Notes under the pieces: model-generated
Seen by the model: only the letters and a program-made list of their open reading frames with translations
Told to the model about the DNA's origin: nothing
Database searches by the model: none
Translations under genes and position numbers: made by a program
Part shown: positions 2,119-29,124 of the stretch, piece by piece
Position numbering within the stretch: position 1 is the first letter of the stretch
Layout: every line of letters starts with the position of its first letter
NCBI GenBank assembly: GCA_007376385.1
Contig: VMGC01000003.1
Location: forward strand, 69,259-133,258
Source: Parcubacteria group bacterium Gr01-1014_8
GTDB taxonomy: Bacteria > Patescibacteriota > Minisyncoccia > Phycocordibacterales > UBA2100
DNA length: 64,000 bases
Direction of reading: 5' to 3'

Positions 2119-4110
2119 TTAAACAAGCGGCTGATGCTCGATGTCTTCCTTCTTTTTTGGAACAATTCCGTGCGCGATGAGGATCTTTTCGAATTCTTCT
2201 CGTTCGATGGTCTCGACTTCAATGAGTTGCTTTGCGATAGCGTCCAAAACCTTGCGATATTTCTTCATGACGTCTTCTGCCCGCTTGTATGCGCCCTCGA
2301 CTATCTTTTTCACTTCCGAATCTATCGCGGCTGATACTTCCTCCGATAACTCTCCGGGTTCGATACCAGCACCAAAAAGTGTCCGGCCAGGCGCAGCTTC
2401 GAGCGCGACGGGCCCCATCTTGTCCGACATACCATACTTGGTGACCATGTCGCGCGCCAGCGCTGAGAGAACCTGCAGGTCATTTGATGCTCCTGTCGTG
2501 ATGTCGTTGAAGATCATCTTTTCTGCGATGTACCCGCCAAGAGAAACAGCGATATCATCCAAAAATTCCAGTTTCGATTGCATGCGTCGGTCTTCAAGCG
2601 GAAGTTTGAGCGTGTATCCTGCAGCGCGCCCGCGCGAAATGATAGAAACTTTGTGTACGGGGTCCGCATACGTCAAGACCGACGCAATGAGCGCATGTCC
2701 CGCCTCGTGATACGCCGTTATCTCCTTCTCTTTCTTGTTAAGCACGTGGCTCCGCCTCTCTGGTCCAAGCATCACCTTCTCTATCGAACGAATGAGGTCG
2801 TATTGTGTCACTTCCTTTCTGTCCTCGCGCGCAGCAAGGATTGCAGCCTCATTCATAAGATTCGCCAAGTCCGCGCCTGAAAACCCCGGGGTTCTCTCTG
2901 CAATGACCATAAGATTCGTATCCGGCCCCATCGGTTTCTGCCTCGCGTGTATCTTGAGGATCGCTTCGCGATCCGACCTGTCCGGCAGATCGATAGTTAC
3001 CCGCCTGTCGAATCGCCCGGGACGAAGCAGAGCGGGATCAAGCACGTCCGGACGGTTCGATGCCGCCATGACGATAACTTTTTCATTCGGTTCAAATCCA
3101 TCCATCTCGACGAGTATTTGGTTCAACGTCTGTTCGCGCTCATCATTTCCCCCTCCCACTCCAGAACCACGAACTCGCCCGACAGCGTCTATCTCATCCA
3201 TGAACACAATGGCCGGTGCGGCTTTTTTCGCGGTTTGAAATAAGTCACGTACGCGCGAAGCGCCGACACCCACGAACATCTCCACAAATTCAGAACCGGA
3301 TATTGAAAAGAAAGGAACACCTGCTTCACCCGCAACCGCTCGTGCTAAGAGCGTCTTTCCTGTTCCAGGCGCGCCCATCAAGAGAACACCCTTGGGGATA
3401 CGCGCGCCTATCTGAATGAACTTTTTTGGATTCTTCAAAAAGTCGACTATCTCTGCAAGTTCCGCTTTTGCTTCTTTTGCACCGGCAACATCTGCGAACG
3501 TAACTTTTTGAACCGTATCTTCCGGAGAAATAAGACGAGCCATCGAGCGACCAAAAGTGAATGCTTGCATGCCGGCACCCCTCACCTGCCTTGAAAGGAA
3601 CCACATGATGCCAAGAAGAAGCAAAACCGGGATTAAAAGCGGCGCGAGCGTGAGAAACCAAAAGCGCGCGCCGCCCTGGTCCTGTATCTCTATCTTTATT
3701 GCCGCAATCTCCTCCGGTGAAAGTCCGTAACGCGCTAAGGTCTCGGTAAGCGGCGCCTCTCCTTCCTTCTGCGAAGTTTTTTCACTTTCATCTTTGTATG
3801 TTGCCTTGATAGTGTCACCTTCAACGGTGAGAGACACTACTTTGTCATCGCGAATGTCATTGGCAAGCTGCGATATTGCTATCTCATCCGCCCCGCTCTC
3901 AATATATTTGCGAACTGCCGAATAGCCCGCTGAAAGTACGAGAAAAACTGCGAACGCAACTGCTAGCTGCATCCAAATACCCGGTCCTTCCGACGGAGGA
4001 ACGGCGGGTTTTTTCCCTTTTTTTCCGTGCAGATCGCCCGGAGTCATTTCTTCGGACATAGACAGCGCATTATACATAAATAGCTTGTCGCAGCTAGTTT
4101 GCGGCGACAA
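2119..4110 (-). CDS. ftsH: ATP-dependent zinc metalloprotease FtsH
   Basis: N-terminal TM segments, AAA+ Walker A GAPGTGKT, second-region-of-homology, HEAGH zinc motif. Confidence 0.95.
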
Positions 4111-10086: not shown

Positions 10087-10689
10087 TTAATATTTGCGCA
10101 CTACTGCAGTGACCACGGCTTCGATGCGAAACGATTCTTTTGGATAAAGCGCTCGGTAACGCTTATTCGCCGGCTCAAGATAGTATTGTTCTCCTGCCTG
10201 CGCCGCGAAGCCTCGCGTCGCGGCAGGCAGGCCCCGCTTCCGAAGATATTTCATCGTGTACTCGCTATCTATGCACGCAATAACTATTTGCCCCGGCTTG
10301 TAAGCACTCCTGCGCTCGACAATGACCATGTCGCCCGGTTGTATCCCCGCTTCTATCATGGAATCTCCTTTTACTTTCAGAATGTAGCTCATCTCTTTAT
10401 TCGGCGTGAGATATTCATCGAAATTCATCACGTCGAGAAGCTCTTCCTCTGCAGCTGAAGGAAAGCCAGCCTCTACCAACCCGAGCATCTTTACGCCTTC
10501 TTCTAGGTTCTGTGGCAGAAGTTTCCCCGAGCCGTCCTTTGAGATAACACCCTCTTCTATGAGCGCTTCGATGCGGTAGTTGACCGCGCTCTTTGTTTTG
10601 TACCCCCACAACTTCATCAATTCAGAGAATGTGGGCATCCTTTGCCGCGAACGATAAAACCCTGCCAGCTTTTCCTTGAATTTTTCCAT
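10087..10689 (-). CDS. lexA: LexA repressor
   Basis: N-terminal winged-HTH, C-terminal S24 peptidase with GDSM serine motif and catalytic Lys region. Confidence 0.9.
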   Translation of the reverse strand: MEKFKEKLAGFYRSRQRMPTFSELMKLWGYKTKSAVNYRIEALIEEGVISKDGSGKLLPQNLEEGVKMLGLVEAGFPSAAEEELLDVMNFDEYLTPNKEMSYILKVKGDSMIEAGIQPGDMVIVERRSAYKPGQIVIACIDSEYTMKYLRKRGLPAATRGFAAQAGEQYYLEPANKRYRALYPKESFRIEAVVTAVVRKY

Positions 10690-13217: not shown

Positions 13218-15869
13218 CTACCGAGGCCGCGTTCCGGACTCCTTGGCTATGTACGAGGCAAGGCCGCCAGGTCTCGAGTAAGCGTACACGTCTTTTATTC
13301 CCATATCGTGGGCGAGCATCAAAACCATCTCTATCAATTGACTCGAAACCGGTGCATCCGGCGTTATCACGATATCGTCCGAAGGAGTCGGATATTTGAG
13401 AAGCATGTTGTATCCAAGAGAGCTTTCGTCTTCCGGTCTGCTATTAGGAATAACATCAACAAGTGACGCGCCCTCCCTCTGTCCGCCTTTTGGTTTCTTG
13501 TGGAATCGCATGACCGGATCATGCCCGGCATGAAGGTACTTTCGAACCTCCTCGGCATTTAGGGTACGCGTTACTTTTGGGATCGGCTTTTGCTGATAAT
13601 CGGACGAGCAGATAGATATGCAGACGAGAGCATTGCCATGAGGATCGAGAACGGCAGGCGTCAATAATGCATCATAGGTCGTATGCAAGAGTGCGTTGGC
13701 TGAAAGGCTTGTGCGTGCGATCGCTATCTGCCCAAGAAGGTTATCCTTTTCATCAGCGGCAAGAATGACAAGATGCTTCTGTATGTTCTTTTCATACTCG
13801 CTCTTCTCCGGCGAAAGATTGTCCCAGCACTGTCGGTACAACTCATACGAGGGAGCCATCCATCGTGAATATCGGTGAAGAATGGTAAACCGGATTATCG
13901 GTTTCTGGACTCCTCGGCTCGGAGATGTGGAAACTGTGTTTTCCCACCTCCCTCGCTCTACGTCGCCGGTAAAACGACGTGCCGGCATTTTGAGAAGTCC
14001 GAATATTGATTCAAAACGCTCGTAGGGCAATGTCTTCTTCAAAACGCTCCGCTGCACTTTGCCCGTCGACGTCATCGGCAATTCGTCAGCGGAAAAAGAG
14101 GTGAGATACTTCGGCGTCTCATATGCGCTTAAGTACGCCGTGCCGAATAGAAGCGACAACTTGAGCCGACGTTTGGCCTTCTTCTCATCTGTACCCGCTT
14201 TCCAGCAAATGACCGCGCCCGCCTCTTCTCCGTAGCGCTCATCGGGAACAGCAACAACGTACACCTGGTCGATCTCAGGAGATATCTTTTTCAAGGCATT
14301 CTCAAGAGCAACGGGCGAGATGTTAACCCCGCCCTTGATGATGATCTCCCGCTTGCGGCCCTTCAGATAGAAGAATTTCTGCTCGCCAACGACCTTAAAA
14401 TATCCGATGTCGCCCGAGAGAAAATATCCGCCTGCCTGCCGCGTCCGACCAGCGCTATATTCACGTCTTAACCATTTTCGACCAAACCCTGTTTTTAAGT
14501 TTTTCTCCCGCTGTACCGCTTCTTTCAACGATGGAAATTCTTCGTGGTGAATAATTCCTATCGGTTTATGCTTTTTGGTGTGCTCGGCGGCTATACCGTT
14601 ATAATGTTGTCGCCATCGTTCATGTATATCTTGAGTTTGACCGATATAAAATGAACCATCATCACACTTGATGACATAAACATAGAACATTTCTGGTCGC
14701 GGCGCAGGCAGGTCACGGATGGCCGGCTCATTCGTAACATACCCCTCCATAACGGCAGGCCCGCGTATCACCAGTTCACCTTCTTCTCCTTCACCGAGAA
14801 AGTTTCCTTTCTCATCCGATATCTGCACGTCGGCCCATGACATTGCCGAGCCAATAGAATTTTCCTCTATCAGTTTCTCGTATAGACCAGGGGGCAGTCC
14901 CATAGGTACCCCGGTAACGCGAAGCGCTGTTTCAGTCTGCCCATATCCTTGGTAGAGCGGAATATCGAATTTCGTCATGAACTCTTGCATCGTATGCACG
15001 ACCACAGGAGCCGAGCCTATTTGGATGCGATTGAGCCGCAATCCTTTTTTAACGAGCGCGTAACTCTCGGAGCGTCCTACTTGATCGAACAGGATGGATT
15101 GCACTATTGATGTGCAGGTTGCCTGACTTTTCGCAGCCTGCTGCCAGAAATGTGAGTTTGAGTAATTCGGCGTGATCGCAATGCTGCCGCCTGCGAGAAG
15201 CGCCGACAGGCAAAATGTGGTGGAATTTATGTGGTGCAACGGGAGGTTTACCAGAAACCTGTCTTCTTCTGTCATGTGAAGCCATTCCTTGATGCCTTCT
15301 GCGTTCACAACAAGGTTATTGAGAGTCAGTTTTGCTCCTTTTGGATACCCTGTAGTCCCTGATGTAAATAAAATAAGGGCACAATGTGAAAGACCGGATT
15401 CCCAGGCTACCGGTCTATCTGTAATATCGGCAAATCCCGCAAATTCCTGGACTTTGACTTCTTTCAAAAAAATACTCTCAATATTTTTAAGCGCCTCCTT
15501 TTCTGCTATCAATAATGTTGCGTTGTTTATTTTTAATTTGTATTGATACAACTCGCCGGTATCTCGCTTAGTATCGAGTGGAACAGTTACGACTCCGATA
15601 CTCCACGCAGCCCAGCTTATTATGAGGAGTTCGGGCGAATTCTTAAATGCGAGAGCTACTCTATCGCCTCGTTTGATATCAAGCGCGTATAAATAGAGCG
15701 CAGCCTGTTTGATTTTCTGCAGCAATTCTTTGTACGTGATCTCCCCCGAGATCGTTCCTTCGTGATCACACGAGAGGAGCGCGACTTTTCCCGGATTCTT
15801 TTGCGAGAGAGCAGAAATGTGCGAGTAGAGGCTTTGTATGGAAGCATGCTGCATAACAATCATCCTCAA
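13218..15869 (-). CDS. Multidomain AMP-binding (acyl-CoA/acyl-AMP synthetase-like) protein. A ~95-aa GIY-YIG nuclease domain is inserted in-frame, and an uncharacterised ~290-aa C-terminal domain follows
   Basis: LFTSGTTGYPKGA, QGYGQTETA and GYFLSGDIGY adenylation motifs. FYVYVIKCDDGSFYIGQTQDIHERWRQH (UPF0213-type GIY-YIG) lies between the GY.TNEPA and G.F.SGDIGY motifs. Confidence 0.7.
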   Translation of the reverse strand: MRMIVMQHASIQSLYSHISALSQKNPGKVALLSCDHEGTISGEITYKELLQKIKQAALYLYALDIKRGDRVALAFKNSPELLIISWAAWSIGVVTVPLDTKRDTGELYQYKLKINNATLLIAEKEALKNIESIFLKEVKVQEFAGFADITDRPVAWESGLSHCALILFTSGTTGYPKGAKLTLNNLVVNAEGIKEWLHMTEEDRFLVNLPLHHINSTTFCLSALLAGGSIAITPNYSNSHFWQQAAKSQATCTSIVQSILFDQVGRSESYALVKKGLRLNRIQIGSAPVVVHTMQEFMTKFDIPLYQGYGQTETALRVTGVPMGLPPGLYEKLIEENSIGSAMSWADVQISDEKGNFLGEGEEGELVIRGPAVMEGYVTNEPAIRDLPAPRPEMFYVYVIKCDDGSFYIGQTQDIHERWRQHYNGIAAEHTKKHKPIGIIHHEEFPSLKEAVQREKNLKTGFGRKWLRREYSAGRTRQAGGYFLSGDIGYFKVVGEQKFFYLKGRKREIIIKGGVNISPVALENALKKISPEIDQVYVVAVPDERYGEEAGAVICWKAGTDEKKAKRRLKLSLLFGTAYLSAYETPKYLTSFSADELPMTSTGKVQRSVLKKTLPYERFESIFGLLKMPARRFTGDVERGRWENTVSTSPSRGVQKPIIRFTILHRYSRWMAPSYELYRQCWDNLSPEKSEYEKNIQKHLVILAADEKDNLLGQIAIARTSLSANALLHTTYDALLTPAVLDPHGNALVCISICSSDYQQKPIPKVTRTLNAEEVRKYLHAGHDPVMRFHKKPKGGQREGASLVDVIPNSRPEDESSLGYNMLLKYPTPSDDIVITPDAPVSSQLIEMVLMLAHDMGIKDVYAYSRPGGLASYIAKESGTRPR

Positions 15870-18467: not shown

Positions 18468-19286
18468 ATGCATGCGTTCTATATTGCGCTTCTCGCTCTC
18501 GTCATTCTCGCCCTGACCGTGGCGACAACATGGTACCCGCCCTCATCGTCGAATAGCCAGCTCGCATCGCCATCTCTAGAAACTGTCGCGCCGGAGACAG
18601 AAATGTCGGAAGCGACGGAAGGAGAGAAAAAAGAGACATATCGGGTGGTAAAGGTTGTCGACGGCGATACGCTCGCTCTCGAAATGGGCGGAAACAGCGT
18701 CACGGTGAGACTTATTGGTCTTGATACGCCTGAAACACTCGACCCCCGTAAACCCGTGCAATGCTTTGGAAAAGAGGCGACGGAACATGCGAAAAAATTA
18801 CTAGAAGGAAGGCGTGTGTCTATCGAAAAGGACCCGACACAAGGAGAATTGGACAAATACGGCCGCCTGCTGGTCTATGTGTATTTACCCGACCTGCCTG
18901 CCGAAGCCTCGGCGCAGGCAGGTGGCTTGATGTTCAACGAACAAATGATATCGGAAGGTTACGGGCATGAGTACACATATAATATTCCTTACAAATATCA
19001 AACGGAATTTAAAGCCGCGGAAAATAAAGCGCGAGAGAGGAAACGAGGTCTCTGGGCTGATAATGCGTGCGCCGAGGAATCAATGCGTGCACCAACCACT
19101 GCTGAAAAACCTATCGTGGTTGTGCCGTCGGGAAATTATGACTGCACTCGCAATACATATAATTGCTCAAGTTTTAGAACGCAGACCGATGCGCAAGCCG
19201 CCTTTGGATCGTGCGGCGGGTCGGAGAACGATATACACAAACTTGATAGTGATAAAGACGGGACTGTGTGCGAGAGCCTTCCGTAA
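18468..19286 (+). CDS. Secreted thermonuclease (SNase-like) with C-terminal Excalibur Ca-binding domain
   Basis: N-terminal TM/signal segment, VVDGDTLAL...RLIGLDTPE SNase core, C-terminal DSDKDGTVCE Excalibur motif. Confidence 0.8.
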   Translation: MHAFYIALLALVILALTVATTWYPPSSSNSQLASPSLETVAPETEMSEATEGEKKETYRVVKVVDGDTLALEMGGNSVTVRLIGLDTPETLDPRKPVQCFGKEATEHAKKLLEGRRVSIEKDPTQGELDKYGRLLVYVYLPDLPAEASAQAGGLMFNEQMISEGYGHEYTYNIPYKYQTEFKAAENKARERKRGLWADNACAEESMRAPTTAEKPIVVVPSGNYDCTRNTYNCSSFRTQTDAQAAFGSCGGSENDIHKLDSDKDGTVCESLP

Positions 19287-28043: not shown

Positions 28044-28074
28044 TCCAGTGTATTACACTTTCGTTTACCGAGCA

Positions 28075-28332
28075 CTAAGTTTGGTCTTGGCGACTTTCGG
28101 AAAGACGTTGCCTAAGCTTCGATTTAGCATATCCGCGATATTTTAACTGATGTTCGCGCCGACGTGCATCACCTTCAGCACGATAGGCTTCGTAATATAT
28201 CAAGGTCCACTTATGTTTTCGCGTAAATTTTGACTTTCCCTTAATATGCTCAGAAAGTCGCCGCCTCAGATCGTTTGTCGAACCTACGTACAGCAAACCG
28301 TCCTGATTTTCCAGAACATATACGTAATGCAT
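28075..28332 (-). CDS. Standalone GIY-YIG nuclease-domain protein (UPF0213/YhbQ-like)
   Basis: HYVYVLENQDGLLYVGSTNDLRRRLSEH. Confidence 0.8.
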   Translation of the reverse strand: MHYVYVLENQDGLLYVGSTNDLRRRLSEHIKGKSKFTRKHKWTLIYYEAYRAEGDARRREHQLKYRGYAKSKLRQRLSESRQDQT

Positions 28333-28347
28333 AAGAACAGACCAAAC

Positions 28348-29124
28348 TTATAGCTCGGTTAAAATTTCTGCTCCGCTTTTTGTGACAAGCACTGTGTGTT
28401 CGGCATGCACTGTCCGGGAACCGTCTTTCGTGCGATAGGCGTGGCCGTCTTTGCCCGAATCGACACGCAAATCGCCAGAACCTCTTGCGAACATCGGCTC
28501 AATTGCGATGACATGACCCTCAACAAGTTTGTCTCCTTCCCCGGGAATTCCGTAGTTCGGCACATGCGGCTCTTCATGCACCGTCCGTCCTACTCCGTGC
28601 CCGCTTAGATTGCGCGGAAACCCAAGGTTGTATTTTTTCGCTATGCGCTCCACAGCATGTCCGATGTCGCCGGTCGTGTTCCCCACTTTCGCTTGTGCTA
28701 TTCCTGCGTCGAGCGCCTCATAGGCGGCATGAACTAATTTTTCATCCTCCGGGTCTCGCGCCTCTCCTGCAATACGTGTGATGGCATGGTCGGTAAAGAA
28801 TCCTCCGTGGATGATGCCAAAATCCAACGACACAATGTCGCCATCGTGAATGACATCATCGCTCTGTCCGGCTGGATTATGAACGATGGCACTGTTTATG
28901 GAAACACTGAGAGCTGACGGCATCGGATTTTTATCGCTCGCGTACTTATAGTTAAGGAACGCAGGCTCGTCGCCATCCTCTTCAACCATTCTGCGGGCCT
29001 CCATTTCGAGCTGCCGCGCTGTAATTCCTGGTCGTATCATGCCTGCAAGCGCTTGCAGATGGCGCGCAAGACGCCTGCCGCCCTCTCTCAGGACGGCAAT
29101 TTCTTCAGGGGTTCTTGCTATCAT
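28348..29124 (-). CDS. map: Methionine aminopeptidase type I
   Basis: Pita-bread fold metal ligands (D..D..H..E..E), HGVGRTVHEEPHVPNYG. Confidence 0.9.
   Translation of the reverse strand: MIARTPEEIAVLREGGRRLARHLQALAGMIRPGITARQLEMEARRMVEEDGDEPAFLNYKYASDKNPMPSALSVSINSAIVHNPAGQSDDVIHDGDIVSLDFGIIHGGFFTDHAITRIAGEARDPEDEKLVHAAYEALDAGIAQAKVGNTTGDIGHAVERIAKKYNLGFPRNLSGHGVGRTVHEEPHVPNYGIPGEGDKLVEGHVIAIEPMFARGSGDLRVDSGKDGHAYRTKDGSRTVHAEHTVLVTKSGAEILTEL

Follow-up and report, generated by a model that had tools for sequence, protein, structure and literature searches.

Why a nuclease domain should lie inside an enzyme of acyl-adenylate chemistry is the question raised by a locus of Parcubacteria group bacterium Gr01-1014_8 (assembly GCA_007376385.1). 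A stretch of 64,000 nucleotides of its contig VMGC01000003.1 (positions 69,259 to 133,258; hereafter the window, which also sets the numbering) contains a gene of the ANL family that encodes, within its reading frame, a GIY-YIG nuclease module. An initial annotation, made from the sequence alone, had noticed this module and attributed it to a mobile element that had either been domesticated by or had invaded a host enzyme. It is proposed here, with a rough probability of 0.8, that the inserted segment is one copy of a widespread selfish mobile element living in frame inside host genes. The features on which the argument is built are as follows.

13218..15869, minus strand: host ANL gene, 883 aa, intact open reading frame (ORF); from Pfam, NCBIfam and 120 orthologues
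14431..14712, minus strand: inserted element, 282 nt, residues 387-480 (LPAPRPEMFYVY...SAGRTRQAG); from orthologue alignment and codon-level junctions
14484..14690, minus strand: GIY-YIG catalytic core, residues 394-462; from PF01541, the AF2 fold and Foldseek/HMM matches
14693..14712, minus strand: 5' arm of the terminal inverted repeat, CCTGCCTGCGCCGCGACCAG, encoding LPAPRP
14431..14452, minus strand: 3' arm of the terminal inverted repeat, CTGGTCGGACGCGGCAGGCAGG, encoding (A)GRTRQAG

The in-frame insertion in the ANL gene

The host protein was recognized as an ANL enzyme by PF00501 (E 6e-61) and PF13193 (E 7e-6) and by A-motifs that follow each other in the proper order, and NCBIfam places it with the acyl-CoA ligase-like members, every match being under its equivalog cut-off. 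Its Pfam domains are AMP-binding (residues 23-377), GIY-YIG (PF01541, residues 394-462, E 5e-15, 55.9 bits against a cut-off of 22.6) and AMP-binding_C (residues 523-604). The 120 best homologues, 633-807 aa in length, come from Kaiserbacteria, Paceibacterota and other Patescibacteria, and none of them (0/120) carries PF01541. In an alignment with ten orthologues, the module stands out as a single clean extra block, in which ..EPAxRD is followed by the insert and then by GYFL[ST]GD. The ORF, the Pfam matches and this alignment agree with the initial annotation on the in-frame position of the module and on its insertion point, and Pfam matched no intein or Hint family.

The exact boundaries can be taken from two orthologous loci (L207 and L208) that are syntenic with the window, with ADH downstream in both and DUF3298 upstream in one. 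Their empty sites read ..CAG AAC|GGA TAT.. and ..CGA GAT|GGG TAT... The window junctions read ..CGT GA[C CTG CCT ... CAG GCA GG]C GGA TAT.., so that an Asp codon is split after its second base (GA|C ... GG|C). This codon-level comparison with two syntenic empty loci gives an insert of exactly 282 nt and a reconstructed empty window site of ATCCGTGA^CGGATAT. The boundaries first given, 14430-14714, were right in location and 1-2 nt too wide at each end. No target-site duplication is present at the window site, the only site with a comparable empty allele, where the sole possibility is a 1-nt ambiguity (C|C). The insertion is recent relative to the gene family, and with no start, no stop, a length of 3n and a single frame, the element is translated as a continuous part of the host protein.

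The place of the insert in the enzyme fold has to be revised. It had been assigned to the linker between the N- and C-terminal subdomains, with GYFLSGD taken as an A8-like motif. The motifs are better read as A6 (GELVIRG..MEGY), A7 of the Y-x-T/S-G-D type (GYFLSGD) and, ~20 residues further on, A8/hinge (LKGRKREIIIKGG, residues ~502-514). The 94-aa insert and the full 883-aa protein were modelled separately with AF2, and the full-length model predicts a strand at residues 364-369 before the insert and strands at 482-494 and 497-505 after it. From knowledge of the motifs and this predicted secondary structure, the insertion point is a turn of the N-terminal subdomain between A6 and A7, not the N/C linker. 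The full-length model reaches a mean pLDDT of 85.5 with confident host domains on either side, and the ANL fold is predicted to be intact around the insert, which emerges from that turn.

The same host protein shows two further features. Beyond AMP-binding_C lies a conserved C-terminal domain of the ANL family of ~270 aa (residues ~604-883, window 13218-14060, minus strand; AF2 pLDDT >90), which has no Pfam match. Within this stretch, a second in-frame insertion of 84 nt (window ~13893-13976, minus strand, residues ~632-659) is absent from orthologues. Its edges form a near-identical 9-nt direct repeat, CGTTTTACC / CGGTTTACC (RFT..RFT), and its centre is a palindrome, GGAGGTGGGAAAAC-ACA-GTTTCCACATCTCC; its sequence is unique in the window and its AF2 pLDDT is <50. 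One orthologue (P0077) has a different insert in the same linker.

Ends, core and distribution of the element

The core of the element encodes a complete GIY-YIG domain. Modelled alone (pLDDT 79.6), the insert is predicted to form strands at 10-17 and 22-27, a helix at 30-38, a strand at 51-60 and helices at 63-73 and 76-87, with coil at both ends, and this beta-beta-alpha-beta-alpha-alpha topology is that of the GIY-YIG fold. Profile matches were obtained to BH0048 (1zg2, 8.5e-15), EF2693 (1ywl, 9.5e-15) and SLX1 (3e-3), and the top Foldseek matches of the model were 1zg2, 1ywl and Slx1 (6seh). By these nearest solved structures the 94-aa module belongs to the UPF0213 / prokaryotic Slx1-like subfamily, in line with the UPF0213-type identity first assigned. 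Since the window copy retains every residue that the family keeps invariant or nearly so (Y13, Y23-I-G, R33, H37, E58, R69-E70 and the LKTGFGRKW block, in insert numbering), its nuclease is probably active.

The initial annotation recognized a mobile element and missed its terminal repeats, the absence of start and stop codons, the fixed length of 282 nt, the copies without an ORF and the wide distribution. The window copy has the ends CCTGCCTGCGCCGCG...CGCGGCAGGCAGG. In the consensus, the outer 15-20 nt on both sides form an imperfect inverted repeat, CCTGCCTGC-GC-CGCG-N5 ... N5-(C)GGR-CGCG-GCAGGCAGG; across the family the arms are translated as LPAPRP and GR(T/A)RQAG and read as linkers. When the element is folded as single-stranded DNA (ssDNA), its minimum-free-energy and centroid structures both have the entire element closed by the terminal stem (z -2.55). 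The ORF in the loop has no stop codon. In the window copy a Met directly precedes FYVYV, and since this position varies among relatives (G, N, D, K and others), the family has no conserved start codon. Among 80 related loci, 42 have the same distance of 282 nt between CCTGCCTGC and GCAGGCAGG. In AT-rich hosts (L013, L017 and L030; locus GC 25-34%), the element keeps 41-46% GC and has not fully taken on the composition of its host.

Core and ends differ in what has been conserved. In 45 distinct copies of 282 nt, the core holds 1.18, 1.34 and 0.45 bits at codon positions 1, 2 and 3, a pattern that argues for purifying selection on the nuclease at the protein level. The terminal 15 nt at each end hold 1.8-1.9 bits at all three codon positions, and this conservation, which includes synonymous sites, points to a constraint on the nucleic acid itself. 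The paired ends consist of three helices (1-9/274-282, 12-15/270-273 and 16-20/261-265), between which asymmetric bulges are left, GC on the 5' side and CGGR on the 3' side. In 44 distinct sequences, 92.6% of the cells of the stem are standard pairs, compared with 28-50% in controls with the partner shifted by one to three columns. Changes on both sides of a pair occur in 26 cells, against 9.1 in shuffles, and the covariation score is 0.098, against 0.052; neither value was reached in any of 500 shuffles. For example, pair 16/265 joins the third positions of an Arg and a Gly codon, both four-fold degenerate, and is found as GC (18), AU (8), CG (4) and UA (4). Because the copies share descent, these statistics serve as indications and not as exact probabilities. 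In the stem, G-T mismatches are about as frequent as A-C mismatches, which mildly favours a structure of importance on either DNA strand over a structure in the sense RNA.

The same cassette is found in unrelated hosts. A search with the 94 aa gave six proteins, 55-60% identical, all with DLPAPRP and ARQAG ends and all in unrelated contexts, among them a DUF1156-type N-terminus and an HsdM-like C-terminus; at the DNA level their ends are the same as those of the window element. A profile of seven sequences, run against 1.84 billion representatives, gave 138 clusters at E<=1e-30, and the best 150 were mostly proteins of 100-1101 aa with the module in an internal position. The pattern LPA...QAG was present in 90 of the 149 proteins examined, with exactly 94 aa in 55 of those 90, and the residue preceding LPAP always has a codon able to end in C. 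Pfam found GIY-YIG in all 123 module-bearing proteins analysed and Methylase_S (HsdS) in 59 of them; at least 41 host families were counted in total, the others in smaller numbers, including DUF1156, N6_Mtase, HsdM_N (HsdM), HSDR_N (HsdR), TypeIII_RM_meth, SelR (MsrB) and PseudoU_synth_2 as well as trigger factor, TatD, QueC, TrmD, ArgRS domains, MGMT and TfoX.

At the DNA level, a tblastn-based scan, which was thus independent of gene calls and used one genome per species, gave 164 genomic relatives, of which the above 80 loci were kept for comparison. By their titles, these loci belong to many lineages of the Candidate Phyla Radiation (CPR), Gamma- and Zetaproteobacteria, Thermodesulfobacteriota, Nitrospirota, Nitrospinota, Verrucomicrobiota, Planctomycetota, Bacteroidota, Acidobacteriota, Bipolaricaulota, Neomarinimicrobiota and one archaeal metagenome-assembled genome (MAG), thereby spanning more than 12 bacterial phyla. 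Every sense copy is free of internal stops, and its frame stays open on both sides, often over hundreds of codons; a single frame is used in more than 60 copies. Complete genomes among the carriers include OY771548.1, OZ000552.1 and CAXXCO010000002.1. Since the copies lie in sense and in one frame inside host ORFs, the nuclease would be made only as an internal domain of host proteins. Absence from the 120 orthologues, together with occurrence of the same cassette in unrelated hosts, bears out the proposal that a mobile element has invaded a host enzyme. No evident vector was found in plasmids or viral contigs: PLSDB contained only YazA-type genes, ~40% identical, and IMG/VR gave one weak partial match only.

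The cassette also has variant sub-families, in one of which the 5' arm has diverged (TTACCTGCGCCG), and a Bacteroidales group is without CCTGCCTGC ends; the loci concerned are L020-L024, L040 and L050, and L059, L061, L065, L067, L074, L077 and L079. In four marine metagenome contigs (L001-L004, positions 1-246), a C-terminal fragment of an element-bearing HsdM lies just downstream of the apparent end of an insertion sequence (IS)-type transposase ORF, and the host gene is apparently truncated.

Insertion sites follow a short preference. Of 42 sites whose flanks are dissimilar, 37 have G at position -2 and 31 have A at -1; on the other side, 33 have C or T at +1 and 25 have G at +2. The usual target, YGA^YGR, lies inside a GAY codon for Asp with the next codon starting with G. 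This Asp-codon preference could reflect the specificity of cleavage or integration or, equally, survival at Asp-Gly and Asp-Glu turns on protein surfaces. Pairing of the target flanks with each other was considered as a further rule and rejected: the complementarity of ATCCG..CGGAT at the window site is coincidental, and general complementarity reaches a maximum of 0.31, against a 95% null value of 0.37.

The ends of the element also occur without the nuclease. In the window, CCTGCCTGC has 6 occurrences, against 0.45 expected, which form three inverted pairs; one pair bounds the GIY-YIG element and the two short hairpins are the following.

10193..10231: ORF-less hairpin, 39 nt, CCTGCCTGCGCCGCGAAGCCTCGCGTCGCGGCAGGCAGG; in frame in a LexA-like Peptidase_S24 gene (10087-10689, minus strand), reads LPAATRGFAAQAG
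18893..18922: ORF-less hairpin, 30 nt, CCTGCCTGCCGAAGCCTCGGCGCAGGCAGG; in frame in an SNase-family gene (18468-19286, plus strand), reads LPAEASAQAG

The identical 30-mer is present in one Bacteroidota and one Planctomycetota locus, with near-identical copies elsewhere, and at least 120 metagenome contigs contain the exact 30-mer. When these metagenomic copies are read in the orientation of the full element, the next base is mostly C or T. Taken with the internally deleted and tandem copies described next, these short hairpins look like non-autonomous derivatives of the full element.

Copies are sometimes combined. Two full copies lie in one HsdS, a 69-nt internally deleted copy stands in tandem with a full copy in one protein, and a full copy is directly followed by a solo hairpin in another (P0127, P0236 and P0124). 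Other types of hairpin (CCTGTGCG..CGCAGACAGG and TGCGTGCGGACACGCA) are nested in or adjoin the element ends in L019 and L029 (~3270-3296), in L027 (2955-2986) and, upstream of the match, in L072, L076 and L085, which suggests several related hairpin families inserting into one another.

A second GIY-YIG gene of the window had been presented as a paralogue of the insert.

28075-28332, minus strand: free-standing GIY-YIG ORF between Peptidase_M24 (map) and purD, 36% identical to the insert

The gene exists as described; at 36% identity and with an inverted repeat of its own, it is neither the source nor a close paralogue of the insert. That repeat has arms of 24 nt (28064-28087 and 28339-28362) with 88% complementarity, one of which reaches into the end of the map gene and covers its last codons and its stop. 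The 11-nt core of the repeat has no other copy in the window. The interval 28064-28362 looks like a second, different GIY-YIG mini-element bracketed by a hairpin, with its own start and stop.

Alternative explanations and a possible mechanism

Several points weigh against a selfish in-frame element at 14431-14712. The metagenomic 30-mers occur in all frames and apparently in intergenic DNA too, so that the in-frame state is not general and the strict frame of the two window hairpins may be survivorship rather than mechanism. Databases contain no homologue of the host gene above 69% identity, and hence no near-identical genome with an empty site. In the full-length AF2 model the insert has a pLDDT of 41-72 per block of 10 residues, a low confidence due to an alignment that did not cover the insert. 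The mismatch rates, the sole indication of whether the stem works as DNA or as RNA, favour DNA only mildly. The dominance of HsdS may stem from few insertions, and counts of clusters at 50% identity overstate independent events; the taxonomy of MAGs can be contaminated. Finally, mobility is deduced from sequence comparison, and GIY-YIG enzymes are hydrolytic nucleases with no known strand-transfer activity, so that integration must need host functions.

The alternative that survives best takes the hairpin as primary, as in REP- or NTS-like repeats, and the GIY-YIG ORF as a guest in its loop or as a hairpin processor that serves the host. It would account for the 30-mer being far commoner than the full element in the sample, for the rarity of long LPA..-type stretches at 80 loci with the 30-mer, only one of which has such a stretch, and that one not a nuclease, and for the hairpins nested in or adjoining elements (L019, L027 and L029) and the solo or deleted copies in tandem (P0124 and P0236); the Neisseria Ssn nuclease, which modulates transformation, would offer a precedent. 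Against it stand the fixed length and the fixed register between ORF and ends in 42 of 80 loci and the lack of a start and stop of its own, which are easier to reconcile with a co-adapted unit than with captures that occurred repeatedly and independently. We therefore regard this explanation as unlikely.

Next in plausibility is a classical homing endonuclease cassette, in which empty alleles are cut, homologous repair copies the element in, and the ends are mere linker coding. Repeated occupancy of the same sites in HsdS (..LVPQDPND|EPAS.. and ..EGRD|YEPAS..) and in HsdM (..DD|GIPFEEKM), in many clusters, is what homing would produce, and the short preferred target YGA^YGR recalls the CNNNG preferred by the catalytic domain of I-TevI. 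However, linker coding needs neither ends that are fixed at synonymous positions nor compensatory changes between them, and ORF-less hairpins of 30-39 nt with the same ends are present in unrelated genes and in intergenic DNA. With hosts from 41 unrelated Pfam families, new sites cannot be put down to homology of the flanks. In addition, Pfam finds in the 883-aa protein no DNA-binding domain of the type that homing GIY-YIG enzymes carry. Homing by itself is thus quite improbable as the origin of the element.

Removal after transcription or translation, by an intein, a group I or II intron, RNA excision guided by the stem or ribosomal bypass, is very improbable. The terminal stem would indeed bring both junctions together in the mRNA. 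Nevertheless, there is no Hint or intein match, and the junctions have Leu and Gly|Gly where an intein would have Cys/Ser and His-Asn|Cys/Ser/Thr, which upholds the initial statement that intein signatures are absent. Rfam gave no match even at E<=1 for 13900-15200 on either strand. The flanking codons, GAC before and GGC after, do not match as bypass would demand, and a length that is a multiple of three, the lack of stops and a single frame in more than 60 copies would be needless if the element were spliced out. The least credible explanation is the domestication first entertained, a functional fusion in which the ANL enzyme uses the nuclease domain: the 883-codon frame is intact and the catalytic residues are kept, but none of the 120 best orthologues has the domain, the same cassette sits in 41 unrelated host families, the insert occupies a surface turn with linker-like junctions, and no functional link is known between acyl-adenylate chemistry and a DNA nuclease.

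For a selfish mobile element living in frame, a route of movement can be outlined tentatively, and hairpin-directed mobilization specifically is given somewhat less than an even chance. The nuclease would recognize a hairpin or cruciform formed by the element ends, probably on ssDNA like the Ssn GIY-YIG nucleases, and would cut the DNA close to or at the hairpin's foot, or else at GA^YG targets. Host repair or ligation may then complete excision and insertion, and the ORF-less hairpins of 30-39 nt might be moved in trans by the same nuclease. Only in-frame sense insertions at tolerant surface sites would persist, as these keep the host gene alive and the nuclease expressed. Frequent residence in genes of type I restriction-modification systems, which themselves move horizontally, could aid spread between phyla.

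Significance and comparison with known systems

There is perhaps an even chance that the element represents a distinct, undescribed class of prokaryotic mobile elements, in which a nuclease ORF without start and stop lies in the loop of a conserved DNA hairpin, spreads in frame across phyla, typically into Asp codons, is expressed as an internal domain of host proteins and has non-autonomous derivatives of 30 nt; it would be a transposon-like counterpart of inteins that does not splice. The full-text literature searched, the coverage of which was incomplete, contained no description of the element as a defined class, and as a class it is probably undescribed. If this holds, there would be a third way for a selfish element encoding a nuclease to live in a gene without killing it: introns leave via RNA and inteins via protein, and this element would be tolerated as an extra domain on a surface turn, borrowing the promoter, ribosome-binding site and stop codon of its host. 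It would explain puzzling GIY-YIG annotations inside HsdS, HsdM, HsdR, methyltransferases, tRNA enzymes and others in metagenome-derived genomes, and would warn against taking such architectures for functional fusions. The copies would also amount to a natural inventory of the sites at which dozens of protein families tolerate insertions, and a compact nuclease of ~90 aa with a defined cognate hairpin of ~30 nt might find uses like those of the Ssn enzymes. The world of hairpin repeats (REP, NTS and RPE, the Rickettsia palindromic elements) would be linked with homing-type nucleases, and the enrichment in restriction-modification genes suggests a route between phyla.

The closest experimentally characterized system is Ssn/NTS. 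Ssn GIY-YIG nucleases bind hairpin repeats of ~30 nt that flank their genes and cut the adjacent ssDNA, and the authors remarked on the IS-like architecture of the genes and on the modulation of transformation by Neisseria Ssn (Chenal et al., 2025, Nat Commun; PMC11893778). Shared with the present element are a small single-domain GIY-YIG nuclease, a gene bracketed by inverted repeats and many scattered matching hairpins of ~30 nt. However, each Ssn gene stands alone, has its own start and stop and is flanked on both sides by a whole hairpin, whereas here an ORF with neither lies inside one split hairpin. NTS repeats are rarely intragenic (2%), and the SRM motif HGTCWYN(0-2)YYVSBRHN(0-5)WNVSBRGN(0-2)RNCYNB has 0 matches on both strands of the 64-kb window (shuffle mean 0.3). 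The Ssn family corresponds to CDD cd10448, whereas the nearest solved relatives of the present module are UPF0213 proteins.

A single earlier case may belong here. A single Slx1-like GIY-YIG domain inserted in HsdR of Methylococcus capsulatus, absent from an 80%-identical homologue, was judged to be recent and possibly parasitic (Dunin-Horkawicz, Feder and Bujnicki, 2006; PMC1564403). This case (MCA0838) was reported as a unique domain insertion, and its description mentions neither terminal repeats nor a fixed length, a frame rule, copies without an ORF or a wider distribution.

Homing GIY-YIG enzymes of the I-TevI and Seg type share a GIY-YIG catalytic domain in a selfish element and a short preferred motif for cutting or insertion. 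They differ in having their own translation signals, a separate DNA-binding domain and homology-dependent homing, and in lacking terminal inverted repeats. IS200/IS605 elements and REP-RAYT systems resemble the element in that hairpins define their ends, they insert beside a short target that is not duplicated, and short hairpin derivatives of them abound. They are not in frame and rely on a Y1 (HUH) transposase with a covalent intermediate and have no GIY-YIG domain, whereas the present element encodes only GIY-YIG.

Closest in lifestyle are RPEs and inteins. RPEs, which Ogata et al. reportedly described in 2000, are said to be palindromic sequences of 100-150 bp, in frame and translated, which encode no ORF and occur only in Rickettsia and its relatives. 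The element resembles them in its palindromic ends, insertion of a multiple of three nucleotides within ORFs and read-through, and is set apart from that description by encoding its own nuclease and by its presence in more than 12 phyla. With inteins it shares selfish in-frame insertion into host genes, use of host transcription and translation, and an encoded nuclease; unlike inteins, it has no Hint domain or splicing residues and gives no sign of removal from the protein, and it carries terminal repeats at the level of DNA.

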